A stretch of 39,096 bases of DNA from Escherichia phage T7, in the sequence record AY264777.1, one strand, 5' to 3'. Shown here piece by piece: positions 2,330 to 22,068 of the stretch; within the stretch, counting starts at the first letter, position 1; the number at the start of each line of letters is the position of its first letter. A model generated the notes under the pieces. It ran no database searches and was not told where the DNA came from. It worked only from the letters and a program-made list of their open reading frames with translations. Made by a program: the position numbers and the translations under genes.

Positions 2330-4981
2330 ATGAACACGATTAACATCGCTAAGAACGACTTCTCTGACATCGAACTGGCTGCTATCCCGTTCAACACTCT
2401 GGCTGACCATTACGGTGAGCGTTTAGCTCGCGAACAGTTGGCTCTTGAGCATGAGTCTTACGAGATGGGTGAAGCACGCTTTCGCAAGATGTTTGAGCGT
2501 CAACTTAAAGCTGGTGAGGTTGCGGATAACGCTGCCGCCAAGCCTCTCATCACTACCCTACTCCCTAAGATGATTGCACGCATCAACGACTGGTTTGAGG
2601 AAGTGAAAGCTAAGCGCGGCAAGCGCCCGACAGCTTTCCAGTTCCTGCAAGAAATCAAGCCGGAAGCCGTAGCGTACATCACCATTAAGACCACTCTGGC
2701 TTGCCTAACCAGTGCTGACAATACAACCGTTCAGGCTGCAGCAAGCGCAATCGGTCGGGCCATTGAGGACGAGGCTCGTTTCGGTCGTATCCGTGACCTT
2801 GAAGCTAAGCACTTCAAGAAAAACGTTGAGGAACAACTCAACAAGCGCGTAGGGCACGTCTACAAGAAAGCATTTATGCAAGTTGTCGAGGCTGACATGC
2901 TCTCTAAGGGTCTACTCGGTGGCGAGGCGTGGTCTTCGTGGCATAAGGAAGACTCTATTCATGTAGGAGTACGCTGCATCGAGATGCTCATTGAGTCAAC
3001 CGGAATGGTTAGCTTACATCGCCAAAATGCTGGCGTAGTAGGTCAAGACTCTGAGACTATCGAACTCGCACCTGAATACGCTGAGGCTATCGCAACCCGT
3101 GCAGGTGCGCTGGCTGGCATCTCTCCGATGTTCCAACCTTGCGTAGTTCTTCCTAAGCCGTGGACTGGCATTACTGGTGGTGGCTATTGGGCTAACGGTC
3201 GTCGTCCTCTGGCGCTGGTGCGTACTCACAGTAAGAAAGCACTGATGCGCTACGAAGACGTTTACATGCCTGAGGTGTACAAAGCGATTAACATTGCGCA
3301 AAACACCGCATGGAAAATCAACAAGAAAGTCCTAGCGGTCGCCAACGTAATCACCAAGTGGAAGCATTGTCCGGTCGAGAACATCCCTGCGATTGAGCGT
3401 GAAGAACTCCCGATGAAACCGGAAAACATCGACATGAATCCTGAGGCTCTCATCGCGTGGAAACGTGCTGCCGCTGCTGTGTACCGCAAGGACAAGGCTC
3501 GCAAGTCTCGCCGTATCAGCCTTGAGTTCATGCTTGAGCAAGCCAATAAGTTTGCTAATCATAAGGCCATTTGGTTCCCTTACAACATGGACTGGCGCGG
3601 TCGTGTTTACGCTGTGTCAATGTTCAACCCGCAAGGTAACGATATGACCAAAGGACTGCTTACGCTGGCAAAAGGTAAACCAATCGGTAAGGAAGGTTAC
3701 TACTGGCTGAAAATCCACGGTGCAAACTGTGCGGGTGTCGATAAGGTTCCGTTCCCTGAGCGCATCAAGTTCATTGAGGAAAACCACGAGAACATCATAG
3801 CTTGCGCTAAGTCTCCACTGGAGAACACTTGGTGGGCTGAGCAAGATTCTCCGTTCTGCTTCCTTGCGTTCTGCTTTGAGTACGCTGGGGTACAGCACCA
3901 CGGCCTGAGCTATAACTGCTCCCTTCCGCTGGCGTTTGACGGGTCTTGCTCTGGCATCCAGCACTCCTCCGCGATGCTCCGAGATGAGGTAGGTGGTCGC
4001 GCGGTTAACTTGCTTCCTAGTGAAACCGTTCACGACATCTACGGGATTGTTGCTAAGAAAGTCAACGAGATTCTACAAGCAGATGCAATCAATGGGACCG
4101 ATAACGAAGTAGTTACCGTGACCGATGAGAACACTGGTGAAATCTCTGAGAAAGTCAAGCTGGGCACTAAGGCACTGGCTGGTCAATGGCTGGCTTACAG
4201 TGTTACTCGCAGTGTGACTAAGCGTTCAGTCATGACGCTGGCTTACGGGTCCAAAGAGTTCGGCTTCCGTCAACAAGTGCTGGAAGATACCATTCAGCCA
4301 GCTATTGATTCCGGCAAGGGTCTGATGTTCACTCAGCCGAATCAGGCTGCTGGATACATGGCTAAGCTGATTTGGGAATCTGTGAGCGTGACGGTGGTAG
4401 CTGCGGTTGAAGCAATGAACTGGCTTAAGTCTGCTGCTAAGCTGCTGGCTGCTGAGGTCAAAGATAAGAAGACTGGAGAGATTCTTCGCAAGCGTTGCGC
4501 TGTGCATTGGGTAACTCCTGATGGTTTTCCTGTGTGGCAGGAATACAAGAAGCCTATTCAGACGCGCTTGAACCTGATGTTCCTCGGTCAGTTCCGCTTA
4601 CAGCCTACCATTAACACCAACAAAGATAGCGAGATTGATGCACACAAACAGGAGTCTGGTATCGCTCCTAACTTTGTACACAGCCAAGACGGTAGCCATC
4701 TTCGTAAGACTGTAGTGTGGGCACACGAGAAGTACGGAATCGAATCTTTTGCACTGATTCACGACTCCTTCGGTACCATTCCGGCTGACGCTGCGAACTT
4801 GTTCAAAGCAGTGCGCGAAACTATGGTTGACACATATGAGTCTTGTGATGTACTGGCTGATTTCTACGACCAGTTCGCTGACCAGTTGCACGAGTCTCAA
4901 TTGGACAAAATGCCAGCACTTCCGGCTAAAGGTAACTTGAACCTCCGTGACATCTTAGAGTCGGACTTCGCGTTCGCGTAA
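2330..4981 (+). CDS. 1: Gene 1, T7 RNA polymerase (883 aa)
   Basis: ORF 2330..4981; full-length single-subunit RNAP; specificity-loop region as recalled for wild type. Confidence 0.98.
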   Translation: MNTINIAKNDFSDIELAAIPFNTLADHYGERLAREQLALEHESYEMGEARFRKMFERQLKAGEVADNAAAKPLITTLLPKMIARINDWFEEVKAKRGKRPTAFQFLQEIKPEAVAYITIKTTLACLTSADNTTVQAAASAIGRAIEDEARFGRIRDLEAKHFKKNVEEQLNKRVGHVYKKAFMQVVEADMLSKGLLGGEAWSSWHKEDSIHVGVRCIEMLIESTGMVSLHRQNAGVVGQDSETIELAPEYAEAIATRAGALAGISPMFQPCVVLPKPWTGITGGGYWANGRRPLALVRTHSKKALMRYEDVYMPEVYKAINIAQNTAWKINKKVLAVANVITKWKHCPVENIPAIEREELPMKPENIDMNPEALIAWKRAAAAVYRKDKARKSRRISLEFMLEQANKFANHKAIWFPYNMDWRGRVYAVSMFNPQGNDMTKGLLTLAKGKPIGKEGYYWLKIHGANCAGVDKVPFPERIKFIEENHENIIACAKSPLENTWWAEQDSPFCFLAFCFEYAGVQHHGLSYNCSLPLAFDGSCSGIQHSSAMLRDEVGGRAVNLLPSETVHDIYGIVAKKVNEILQADAINGTDNEVVTVTDENTGEISEKVKLGTKALAGQWLAYSVTRSVTKRSVMTLAYGSKEFGFRQQVLEDTIQPAIDSGKGLMFTQPNQAAGYMAKLIWESVSVTVVAAVEAMNWLKSAAKLLAAEVKDKKTGEILRKRCAVHWVTPDGFPVWQEYKKPIQTRLNLMFLGQFRLQPTINTNKDSEIDAHKQESGIAPNFVHSQDGSHLRKTVVWAHEKYGIESFALIHDSFGTIPADAANLFKAVRETMVDTYESCDVLADFYDQFADQLHESQLDKMPALPAKGNLNLRDILESDFAFA

Positions 4982-8248: not shown

Positions 8249-8251
<3 letters not shown>

Positions 8252-8271
8252 TACGACTCACTATTAGAGAA
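8249..8271 (+). promoter_or_regulatory. T7 promoter phi2.5 (A-initiating class II promoter)
   Basis: taatacgactcactattagagaa. Confidence 0.8.
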
Positions 8272-9015: not shown

Positions 9016-9435
9016 GTGGAACTGCGGGAGAAAATCCTTGAGCGAATCAAGGTGACTTCCTCTGGGTGTTGGGAGTGGCAGGGCGCTACGAACAATAAAG
9101 GGTACGGGCAGGTGTGGTGCAGCAATACCGGAAAGGTTGTCTACTGTCATCGCGTAATGTCTAATGCTCCGAAAGATTCTACCGTCCTGCACTCCTGTGA
9201 TAATCCATTATGTTGTAACCCTGAACACTTATCCATAGGAACTCCAAAAGAGAACTCCACTGACATGGTAAATAAGGGTCGCTCACACAAGGGGTATAAA
9301 CTTTCAGACGAAGACGTAATGACAATCATGGAGTTCAGCGAGTCCAATGTATCCTTAGCTCGCACCTATGATGTCTCCCAACAGACTATTTGTGATATAC
9401 GCAAAGGGAGGCGACATGGCAGGTTACAGCGCTAA
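9016..9435 (+). CDS. 2.8: Gene 2.8, HNH-like protein (139 aa), apparent GTG start
   Basis: ORF 9016..9435; Cys/His-rich N-terminal half. Confidence 0.75.
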   Translation: MELREKILERIKVTSSGCWEWQGATNNKGYGQVWCSNTGKVVYCHRVMSNAPKDSTVLHSCDNPLCCNPEHLSIGTPKENSTDMVNKGRSHKGYKLSDEDVMTIMEFSESNVSLARTYDVSQQTICDIRKGRRHGRLQR

Positions 9436-9865
9436 AGGAATCCGAAAAGTTGGAGCGTTTCGCTCTGGCCTAGAGGACAAGGTTTCAAAGCAGTTGGAAT
9501 CAAAAGGTATTAAATTCGAGTATGAAGAGTGGAAAGTGCCTTATGTAATTCCGGCGAGCAATCACACTTACACTCCAGACTTCTTACTCCCAAACGGTAT
9601 ATTCGTTGAGACAAAGGGTCTGTGGGAAAGCGATGATAGAAAGAAGCACTTATTAATTAGGAAGCAGCACCCCGAGCTAGACATCCGTATTGTCTTCTCA
9701 AGCTCACGTACTAAGTTATACAAAGGTTCTCCAACGTCTTATGGAGAGTTCTGCGAAAAGCATGGTATTAAGTTCGCTGATAAACTGATACCTGCTGAGT
9801 GGATAAAGGAACCCAAGAAGGAGGTCCCCTTTGATAGATTAAAAAGGAAAGGAGGAAAGAAATAA
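9416..9865 (+). CDS. 3: Gene 3, endonuclease I, Holliday-junction resolvase (149 aa)
   Basis: Internal ATG 9416 of ORF 9368..9865; MAGYSAKGIRKVGAFRSGLEDKVSKQLE... Confidence 0.9.
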   Translation: MAGYSAKGIRKVGAFRSGLEDKVSKQLESKGIKFEYEEWKVPYVIPASNHTYTPDFLLPNGIFVETKGLWESDDRKKHLLIRKQHPELDIRIVFSSSRTKLYKGSPTSYGEFCEKHGIKFADKLIPAEWIKEPKKEVPFDRLKRKGGKK

Positions 9866-10320
9866 TGGCTCGTGTACAGTTTAAACAACGTGAATTTACT
9901 GATGCAATCTTTGTTCACTGCTCGGCTACCAAGCCAAGTCAGAATGTTGGTGTCCGTGAGATTCGCCAGTGGCACAAAGAGCAGGGTTGGCTCGATGTGG
10001 GATACCACTTTATCATCAAGCGAGACGGTACTGTGGAGGCAGGACGAGATGAGATGGCTGTAGGCTCTCACGCTAAGGGTTACAACCACAACTCTATCGG
10101 CGTCTGCCTTGTTGGTGGTATCGACGATAAAGGTAAGTTCGACGCTAACTTTACGCCAGCCCAAATGCAATCCCTTCGCTCACTGCTTGTCACACTGCTG
10201 GCTAAGTACGAAAGCGCTGTGCTTCGCGCCCATCATGAGGTGGCGCCGAAGGCTTGCCCTTCGTTCGACCTTAAGCGTTGGTGGGAGAAGAACGAACTGG
10301 TCACTTCTGACCGTGGATAA
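9865..10320 (+). CDS. 3.5: Gene 3.5, lysozyme (N-acetylmuramoyl-L-alanine amidase, RNAP inhibitor) (151 aa)
   Basis: ORF 9865..10320; MARVQFKQREFTDAIFVHCSATK... Confidence 0.95.
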   Translation: MARVQFKQREFTDAIFVHCSATKPSQNVGVREIRQWHKEQGWLDVGYHFIIKRDGTVEAGRDEMAVGSHAKGYNHNSIGVCLVGGIDDKGKFDANFTPAQMQSLRSLLVTLLAKYESAVLRAHHEVAPKACPSFDLKRWWEKNELVTSDRG

Positions 10321-10321
10321 T

Positions 10322-10344
10322 TAATTGAACTCACTAAAAGGAAA
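10322..10344 (+). promoter_or_regulatory. T7 promoter phi3.8 (variant initially transcribed sequence)
   Basis: taattgaactcactaaaaggaaa. Confidence 0.75.
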
Positions 10345-10383
10345 CCACAGCGGTTTCCCTTTGTTCGCATTGGAGGTCAAATA

Positions 10384-12424
<2,041 letters not shown>

Positions 12425-18693: not shown

Positions 18694-18993
18694 ATGGGTA
18701 AGAAAGTTAAGAAGGCCGTGAAGAAAGTCGCCAAGTTCGTTAAGAAAGTCGTTAAGGAAGGGGCTCGTCCGGTTAAACAGGTTGCTGGCGGTCTAGCTGG
18801 TCTGGCTGGTGGTACTGGTAAAGCACAGATGGTGGAAGTACCACAAGCTGCCGCACAGATTGTTGATGTACCTGAGAAAGAGGTTTCCACTGAGGACGAA
18901 GCACAGACAGAAAGCGGACGCAAGAAAGCTCGTGCTGGCGGTAAGAAATCCTTGAGTGTAGCCCGTAGCTCCGGTGGCGGTATCAACATTTAA
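18694..18993 (+). CDS. 7.3: Gene 7.3, tail-associated protein (99 aa)
   Basis: ORF track 18694..18993; Lys/Ala/Gly-rich. Confidence 0.8.
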   Translation: MGKKVKKAVKKVAKFVKKVVKEGARPVKQVAGGLAGLAGGTGKAQMVEVPQAAAQIVDVPEKEVSTEDEAQTESGRKKARAGGKKSLSVARSSGGGINI

Positions 18994-19399: not shown

Positions 19400-21009
19400 T
19401 GGCTGAGAAACGAACAGGACTTGCGGAGGATGGCGCAAAGTCTGTCTATGAGCGTTTAAAGAACGACCGTGCTCCCTATGAGACACGCGCTCAGAATTGC
19501 GCTCAATATACCATCCCATCATTGTTCCCTAAGGACTCCGATAACGCCTCTACAGATTATCAAACTCCGTGGCAAGCCGTGGGCGCTCGTGGTCTGAACA
19601 ATCTAGCCTCTAAGCTCATGCTGGCTCTATTCCCTATGCAGACTTGGATGCGACTTACTATATCTGAATATGAAGCAAAGCAGTTACTGAGCGACCCCGA
19701 TGGACTCGCTAAGGTCGATGAGGGCCTCTCGATGGTAGAGCGTATCATCATGAACTACATTGAGTCTAACAGTTACCGCGTGACTCTCTTTGAGGCTCTC
19801 AAACAGTTAGTCGTAGCTGGTAACGTCCTGCTGTACCTACCGGAACCGGAAGGGTCAAACTATAATCCCATGAAGCTGTACCGATTGTCTTCTTATGTGG
19901 TCCAACGAGACGCATTCGGCAACGTTCTGCAAATGGTGACTCGTGACCAGATAGCTTTTGGTGCTCTCCCTGAGGACATCCGTAAGGCTGTAGAAGGTCA
20001 AGGTGGTGAGAAGAAAGCTGATGAGACAATCGACGTGTACACTCACATCTATCTGGATGAGGACTCAGGTGAATACCTCCGATACGAAGAGGTCGAGGAT
20101 ATGGAAGTCCAAGGCTCCGATGGGACTTATCCTAAAGAGGCTTGCCCATACATCCCGATTCGGATGGTCAGACTAGATGGTGAATCCTACGGTCGTTCGT
20201 ACATTGAGGAATACTTAGGTGACTTACGGTCCCTTGAAAATCTCCAAGAGGCTATCGTCAAGATGTCCATGATTAGCTCTAAGGTTATCGGCTTAGTGAA
20301 TCCTGCTGGTATCACCCAGCCACGCCGACTGACCAAAGCTCAGACTGGTGACTTCGTTACTGGTCGTCCAGAAGACATCTCGTTCCTCCAACTGGAGAAG
20401 CAAGCAGACTTTACTGTAGCTAAAGCCGTAAGTGACGCTATCGAGGCTCGCCTTTCGTTTGCCTTTATGTTGAACTCTGCGGTTCAGCGTACAGGTGAAC
20501 GTGTGACCGCCGAAGAGATTCGGTATGTAGCTTCTGAACTTGAAGATACTTTAGGTGGTGTCTACTCTATCCTTTCTCAAGAATTACAATTGCCTCTGGT
20601 ACGAGTGCTCTTGAAGCAACTACAAGCCACGCAACAGATTCCTGAGTTACCTAAGGAAGCCGTAGAGCCAACCATTAGTACAGGTCTGGAAGCAATTGGT
20701 CGAGGACAAGACCTTGATAAGCTGGAGCGGTGTGTCACTGCGTGGGCTGCACTGGCACCTATGCGAAACGACCCTGATATTAACCTTGCGATGATTAAGT
20801 TACGTATTGCCAACGCTATCGGTATTGACACTTCTGGTATTCTACTCACCGAAGAACAGAAGCAACAGAAGATGGCCCAACAGTCTATGCAAATGGGTAT
20901 GGATAATGGTGCTGCTGCGCTGGCTCAAGGTATGGCTGCACAAGCTACAGCTTCACCTGAGGCTATGGCTGCTGCCGCTGATTCCGTAGGTTTACAGCCG
21001 GGAATTTAA
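19399..21009 (+). CDS. 8: Gene 8, head-tail connector (portal) (536 aa)
   Basis: Internal ATG 19399 of ORF 19384..21009. Confidence 0.95.
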   Translation: MAEKRTGLAEDGAKSVYERLKNDRAPYETRAQNCAQYTIPSLFPKDSDNASTDYQTPWQAVGARGLNNLASKLMLALFPMQTWMRLTISEYEAKQLLSDPDGLAKVDEGLSMVERIIMNYIESNSYRVTLFEALKQLVVAGNVLLYLPEPEGSNYNPMKLYRLSSYVVQRDAFGNVLQMVTRDQIAFGALPEDIRKAVEGQGGEKKADETIDVYTHIYLDEDSGEYLRYEEVEDMEVQGSDGTYPKEACPYIPIRMVRLDGESYGRSYIEEYLGDLRSLENLQEAIVKMSMISSKVIGLVNPAGITQPRRLTKAQTGDFVTGRPEDISFLQLEKQADFTVAKAVSDAIEARLSFAFMLNSAVQRTGERVTAEEIRYVASELEDTLGGVYSILSQELQLPLVRVLLKQLQATQQIPELPKEAVEPTISTGLEAIGRGQDLDKLERCVTAWAALAPMRNDPDINLAMIKLRIANAIGIDTSGILLTEEQKQQKMAQQSMQMGMDNGAAALAQGMAAQATASPEAMAAAADSVGLQPGI

Positions 21010-21029
21010 TACGACTCACTATAGAGAGA
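21007..21029 (+). promoter_or_regulatory. T7 class III promoter phi9 (variant at +2)
   Basis: taatacgactcactatagagaga. Confidence 0.85.
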
Positions 21030-22045: not shown

Positions 22046-22068
22046 TAATACGATTCATTATAGGGAGA
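22046..22068 (+). promoter_or_regulatory. T7 class III promoter phi10 (two substitutions, -9 and -5)
   Basis: taatacgattcattatagggaga followed by the gene 10 leader ccacaacggtttccctctagaaataattttgtttaactttaagaaggagatatacat. Confidence 0.9.

Follow-up and report, generated by a model that had tools for sequence, protein, structure and literature searches.

What does it mean for a T7 phage when the nucleotide at which one of its promoters starts transcription is itself replaced? This question is raised by the phi3.8 promoter in a 39,096-nucleotide stretch of DNA from Escherichia phage T7 (sequence record AY264777.1), which was analyzed over its full length and is referred to here as the window. 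The site is a class II promoter for T7 RNA polymerase and occupies positions 10322–10344 on the + strand (promoter positions −17 to +6), where the window reads TAATTGAACTCACTAAAAGGAAA, that is, TAATTGAACTCACTAAA followed by AGGAAA from +1 onward. An earlier note on this DNA had named the site as phi3.8, given the wild-type start as GGGAGA, and placed G-to-A changes at +1 and +5, adding that its reading would fall if wild-type phi3.8 already carried AGGAAA at +1 to +6. Alignment with reference T7 bears out the identification, the stated wild type, and both positions. Specifically, the feature "T7 promoter phi3.8" in NC_001604 and in V01146 has its +1 at 11180, the counterpart of window position 10339, and the reference promoter is TAATTGAACTCACTAAAGGGAGA, with TAATTGAACTCACTAAA followed by GGGAGA rather than AGGAAA. 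The two forms are identical at 21 of 23 positions, and shuffled sequences yielded no chance matches to the 23-mer.

Both substitutions are G>A on the + strand in a 5′-AG context, one at the initiating nucleotide (+1, position 10339) and the other in the initially transcribed sequence (+5, position 10343). Promoter positions +2, +3, +4, and +6 and the flanks are unchanged, and the surrounding 120 bases hold only these two differences. As annotated in the reference, phi3.8 lies between gene 3.5 and gene 3.8. Gene 3.5 (lysozyme/amidase; 9865–10320, + strand, corresponding to NC_001604 10706–11161 shifted by −841) ends 2 bases before the promoter, and the first gene downstream of it is gene 3.8 (HNH endonuclease homologue; 10384–10749, + strand), which is intact and encodes a protein identical to AAP34084.1, an accession that falls between the gene 3.8 proteins of AY264776 (AAP34034) and AY264778 (AAP34137). 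This protein carries three missense changes (G37D, P39S, and D45N), all close together in the HNH motif region DHIDGNPLNDALDNL, a pattern in keeping with a dispensable gene on which selection has relaxed.

With respect to the origin of the promoter changes, the window carries 303 substitutions relative to NC_001604, of which 286 are G:C>A:T transitions (159 C>T and 127 G>A). The rate of G>A change varies with the 5′ neighbor, reaching 3.0% after G and 2.1% after A but only 0.8% when the neighbor is C and 0.27% when it is T. An excess of G:C>A:T with a bias toward G preceded by a 5′ purine is the pattern typically left by alkylating agents such as nitrosoguanidine. Dominance of G:C>A:T is likewise reported for nitrosoguanidine-treated T7. 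Exposure to a mutagen of this alkylating, nitrosoguanidine type would account for the approximately 286 G:C>A:T transitions, with the two in phi3.8 falling at the preferred 5′-AG context. Since they form 2 of the 303 substitutions in a chemically mutagenized lineage, the phi3.8 changes are most likely unselected, and as part of a load of this size they are no special feature of that promoter.

The nearest sequence record is AY264778 (T7 isolate P82), which has 294 substitutions in common with the window, including both phi3.8 changes. Relative to the window, P82 has 19 further substitutions, is without three of the window's substitutions, and differs at two more sites. The five sites at which the window and P82 differ in this way include three within the RNA polymerase gene. 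P82 has also lost single bases at window positions 9406 and 13094 and a 12-bp segment of gene 7.3 at 18741–18752. Of its 19 private substitutions, five are G>T, which is not the mutagen signature, and the record contains one N. These private changes may have arisen during subsequent passages from which the mutagen was absent, or they may reflect a sequence of poorer quality.

The P82 record also bears on whether the altered bases are real, as a sequencing or assembly error, or a natural polymorphism among T7 stocks, could in principle produce the same picture. Nothing specific speaks for this reading beyond the Sanger-era date of the record and the N and odd G>T differences in P82. Against it, the separately deposited P82 genome has both bases in identical form, so the phi3.8 changes are not a read error; both also match the genome-wide mutagen spectrum, and among the T7 records listed all others, together with 12 natural relatives, read GGGAGA. 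We therefore assign error or stock polymorphism next to no probability.

Comparison with other phages was used to place the altered version further. When a 91-base query was compared with 50,697 phage records, 174 matches were obtained, of which only P82 reached at least 99% identity (100%), with the other 173 below that level. A scan of IMG/VR in which any bases were allowed at +1 to +6 recovered only reference T7. Among the natural relatives, the sequence GGGAGACC…GGTTTCCCTTT is invariant in 12 of 12, including a member of another genus, and the +1 G, the +5 G, and the arms of a hairpin that overlaps the promoter are kept even in relatives that lack gene 3.8 and have gene 4 directly next. 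A natural variant of phi3.8 was accordingly ruled out as an origin of the altered promoter, this version being present, among the phage records searched, only in the window and in P82, and the relatives all having GGGAGACC. The invariance among relatives implies that the wild-type element is constrained in nature, and judging from this conservation the changes to phi3.8 and to the overlapping hairpin may be costly to the phage, although probably only modestly so. Costs of this kind were imposed on the lineage on purpose.

In addition to its substitutions, the window differs structurally from the reference in lacking the first 23 bases (terminal repeat), in an 819-bp deletion, and in a 1-bp insertion. 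The deletion removes wild-type positions 2169–2987 in the gene 0.7 region, leaving a junction at window position 2146/2147, and is common to P82. The insertion lies at window position 1873, after wild-type position 1895/1896; an insertion after 1896 is described as a marker of the Bull/Molineux laboratory T7+ stock.

A second mutagenized line, K (AY264775), also among the T7 genomes of Bull et al. 2003, has 405 substitutions, whose spectrum and dependence on sequence context match those of the window. Unlike the window and P82, K and its relative K115 (AY264776) are wild type at phi3.8. There are 21 sites substituted both in the lineage of the window and P82 and in line K, 20 of them by the identical change (2443, 4699, 7001, 10939, and 11155 are examples), which points either to a common ancestor early in the history of the lines or to changes that arose in parallel and may be adaptive. 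Line K also has a deletion in the gene 0.7 region, and since this deletion differs from that of the window, the deletions in this region are parallel events.

An experimental phylogeny of T7 driven by nitrosoguanidine was reportedly described by Hillis and colleagues in 1992. We take "K" and "P" to be terminal lineages of the T7 experimental phylogeny, with K115 and P82 as later passages. The window would represent a sister or an ancestor of P82, and to judge from the isolate names P presumably precedes P82. Taken together, these observations indicate that the genome is that of a heavily mutagenized laboratory T7 lineage, almost certainly the isolate "P" described by Bull et al. (2003). The phi3.8 changes belong to an already published and deposited genome and are in that sense already known. 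This lineage was overlooked in the earlier note, as were the natural occurrence of A at +1 and +5 in T7 promoters and the overlap with an RNA processing site, so that its reading of the locus is supported in part, for the site and the changes themselves.

Given such a mutation load, it can be asked whether two hits in one small element are more than chance would supply. The context-specific rates predict 0.15 G:C>A:T hits for the phi3.8 23-mer, which in fact carries 2 (P ~0.01, uncorrected). This excess is a statistical argument for a reading in which the changes were selected, either because a weaker processing hairpin lowers cleavage and raises expression of gene 4 and the other DNA-metabolism genes in a crippled genome, or because the change at +5 compensates that at +1. 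P82, moreover, keeps both changes. The excess is not significant when corrected for the 17 promoters tested, among which phi10 also has two hits, and close pairs of mutations are common genome-wide, with 13 neighboring pairs at most 4 bases apart against 9.3 expected. In addition, both changes are of the transition type that characterizes the mutagen and lie in the context it favors, and the independent line K is unchanged at phi3.8. A later Bull paper cites Bull et al. 2003 as an example of random mutations fixed via extreme bottlenecks, a regime that favors drift. On this evidence the phi3.8 pair most likely represents unselected mutagen hits, fixed by drift or hitch-hiking rather than by selection, and we regard a selected origin as very improbable.

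Across all 17 T7 promoters, 6 hits were found where 2.6 are expected (P ~0.05), and four promoters are altered (phi2.5, phi3.8, phi9, and phi10). Given this excess and that at phi3.8 itself, some selection or a local mutational hotspot may have contributed. In line K, G+1A occurs in phi1.5, and G+5A occurs in phi1.1A and phi4c, which shows that G>A in class II start regions is recurrent and tolerated.

The changes in the remaining altered promoters of the window are as follows. In phi10 (22046–22068), C>T changes are present at −9 and −5 (22054 and 22058), both conserved positions, and both are common to P82. The phi10 promoter is the strongest in T7 and drives the major capsid gene, and in a high-throughput screen of T7 promoters −5 was the position most often mutated among low-activity variants that keep the CTC core. 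The double change in phi10 is likely to be a larger functional hit than that in phi3.8. In phi9 (21007–21029), G>A at +2 (21025) converts GGGAGA to GAGAGA, and in phi2.5 (8249–8271), G>A at +3 (8268) converts AGGGAA to AGAGAA.

In terms of promoter function, phi3.8 is wild type from −17 to −1, a stretch that takes in both the region recognized by the polymerase (−17 to −5) and the region that melts (−4 to −1). Since these regions are untouched, T7 RNA polymerase would still be expected to bind the mutant promoter. What is altered is the start. G is found at +1 in 15 of the 17 T7 promoters, a pattern from which mutant phi3.8 departs with its A. The two wild-type promoters with a natural A at the aligned +1 are phi2.5 (TATT followed by AGGGAA) and phiOL (TATA followed by AGGAGA), and by this precedent an A at +1 does not disqualify phi3.8 as a T7 promoter. 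A natural A at +5 is found in five wild-type T7 promoters, namely phi1.1B, phi1.6, phi2.5, phi4.3, and phi4.7. The change at +5 alone would be approximately neutral for the promoter.

The earlier note had also held that replacing the initiating G usually reduces initiation or shifts the start site. This expectation agrees with the literature, in which GTP is the usual initiator for T7 RNA polymerase and is recognized via specific contacts. Moreover, substitution of the +1 G has been associated with heterogeneous 5′ ends, as a later paper notes with reference to Cunningham 1991, Helm 1999, and Imburgio 2000. In vitro start screens also give the highest activity to GGG at +1 to +3, and sequences that are AT-rich from +4 to +8 tend toward activity. 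In the randomized-start screen of Conrad 2020 (Supplementary Data 1), the mutant start GGGAAACC ranked 111th (2.50) and the wild-type start GGGAGACC ranked 146th (2.33), so that GGGAAACC is at least as active as wild-type GGGAGACC in vitro. The slightly higher value for GGGAAACC is one of the points that would suit a selected change.

These data bear on a second alternative, in which the double change abolishes phi3.8 and leaves genes 3.8, 4, and onward to be expressed by read-through only. The favored status of GTP as initiator and the superior activity of GGG starts would fit such a loss, as would the weak rating of phi3.8, whose wild-type sequence is nonconsensus at −13, −12, −11, and −2; a complete loss would furthermore be masked by read-through. 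On the other side stand the unchanged sequence from −17 to −1, the natural AGG starts of phi2.5 and phiOL, and the finding that phi2.5, an ATP-initiating promoter in vitro, supports efficient AGG starts with ~11% 5′ heterogeneity. In addition, G is kept at +2 and +3 of mutant phi3.8, which makes a shifted start possible. Weighing these points, we consider a complete loss of phi3.8 activity unlikely. The preferred reading is of a promoter that is functional and probably weaker, at which transcription would begin with ATP at 10339 and/or with GTP at 10340, probably less efficiently and with more heterogeneity at the 5′ end.

Altered promoters might also be accommodated by changes in the polymerase that reads them. 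The RNA polymerase gene of the window (gene 1, 2330–4981) encodes nine changes, V137A, P274L, D351N, D366N, T375I, M490I, F546S, Q568H, and G624S; the P82 polymerase is without F546S and Q568H and has D351Y in place of D351N. The line K polymerase has V273I and P275S, which flank P274L of this lineage, and the three may form a parallel cluster. The specificity loop of T7 RNA polymerase comprises residues 739–770. None of the nine changes falls at residues 425, 632, 784, or 222 or within the specificity loop. The idea that the polymerase has become adapted to the altered promoters, or to initiation with A, finds no support at these residues.

The phi3.8 sequence has a second role as RNA. In transcripts read through from upstream promoters, the region 10322–10372 on the + strand is predicted to fold into R3.8, an RNase III processing hairpin, and the phi3.8 23-mer sits wholly in the 5′ arm of this predicted fold. 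The structure comprises a lower stem (10322–10330 with 10363–10372), an asymmetric 5-nt internal loop (10331–10335), an 11-bp upper stem (10336–10346 with 10352–10362), and a 5-nt terminal loop (10347–10351). An annotation of the same arrangement is found in Yersinia phage Y (JQ957925), where "phi3.8" and "R3.8; RNase III site" features overlap at bases equivalent to window positions 10323–10371. Because the RNase III site uses the same bases, any promoter change at phi3.8 must be read at both levels.

Specifically, the change at +1 converts the upper-stem pair G(+1)–C(+21), whose partner is C 10359, to an A·C mismatch, and the change at +5 converts the wobble G(+5)·U(+17), whose partner is U 10355, to an A–U pair. 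The predicted energy of wild-type R3.8 is −21.6 kcal/mol. It becomes −15.0 kcal/mol with G+1A alone, −21.5 kcal/mol with G+5A alone, and −14.9 kcal/mol with both, which makes the mutant hairpin 6.7 kcal/mol less stable than wild type by prediction. The z-score moves from −3.15 to −1.46, and the same architecture is predicted for both forms. As for other elements, comparison with Rfam gave a single chance-level match at the site, far below the gathering score, and when the altered sequence was scanned for sigma-70 promoters and terminators that the changes might have created, the one relevant match was the hairpin, which resembles a terminator.

The wild-type coordinate for R3.8 cleavage is reportedly to be found in the work of Dunn and Studier from 1983. 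We take it to be 11203, in which case the +1 mismatch would lie ~3 base pairs away from the cleavage site. The A·C mismatch may weaken the hairpin and with it the processing of read-through transcripts. Jack et al. 2019 treat the promoter and R3.8 as a single locus in which transcription starts just upstream of the cleavage site, and observe a sustained drop in RNA coverage downstream of R3.8 in normal infections.

These features lend a selected change a plausible target, since transcripts normally fall after R3.8 and a weaker site could raise downstream expression, and the change at +1 is predicted to cost ~6.6 kcal/mol of hairpin stability. The +5 change, by comparison, is without energetic effect on the hairpin (−15.0 kcal/mol for the single and −14.9 kcal/mol for the double mutant), so that it provides no structural compensation for +1, and compensation of this kind was rejected. 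A related proposal is that the +1 change acts mainly on the RNA, where loss of a G–C pair near the cleavage site could reduce RNase III processing and make the drop in transcripts downstream smaller. We give this proposal a low probability. If it were true, gene 4 and the later class II genes would be expressed at altered levels, and the lineage would represent a ready-made mutant with which to probe the role of R3.8 and the overlap of promoter and processing site.

Whatever the balance between promoter and hairpin, several properties of T7 suggest that the cost to the phage would be small. The only terminators annotated in T7 are TE and Tphi, with none between the class II promoters and Tphi (24210), and since no T7 terminator intervenes, genes 3.8, 4, and onward are also read from phi1.1A to phi2.5. 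T7 messages are polycistronic, and the phage can grow in hosts that lack RNase III and survives even a double knockout of phi9 and phi10. The published T7 model of Jack et al. 2019 sets the strength of phi3.8 at 0.01 of that of phi10. The weakness of phi3.8, read-through from upstream, the dispensability of gene 3.8, and growth independent of RNase III would each help to keep the cost low, and both phi3.8 changes are still present in P82. It is also of note that G>A at +1 of a class II promoter has arisen in two independent lines, at phi3.8 here and at phi1.5 in line K, and that both phages are viable, which illustrates the redundancy of T7 class II transcription.

Taken together, we consider it probable, with fairly good confidence, that the window represents mutagenized lineage P and that the changes at +1 and +5 of phi3.8 are drift or hitch-hiking hits, which would have weakened both a minor, redundant promoter and the R3.8 hairpin that overlaps it. 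On this basis the phi3.8 changes are an ordinary part of the mutation load in the published product of a mutagenesis and evolution experiment, and they matter little.

It is instructive, finally, to compare the mutant element with its natural counterparts. The start AGGAAA is identical at 5 of 6 positions to that of phi2.5 and likewise to that of phiOL, and all three have A followed by GG. Since wild-type T7 has A at +1 in some promoters and at +5 in others, neither A is foreign to T7 promoters. The resemblance has its limits. Upstream of the start, phi2.5 and phiOL both follow the consensus more closely than phi3.8 does. Moreover, whereas phi2.5 has T at −1, mutant phi3.8 has AAA at −3 to −1, which produces a run of four A residues across the start that may favor slippage or the use of neighboring starts. 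At the RNA level, the mutant R3.8 resembles the R3.8 of T7 and its relatives in the lower stem, the internal loop, and the terminal loop, and it differs from them at two pairs of the upper stem. The A at +1 of mutant phi3.8 is a mutagen hit rather than an evolved feature.
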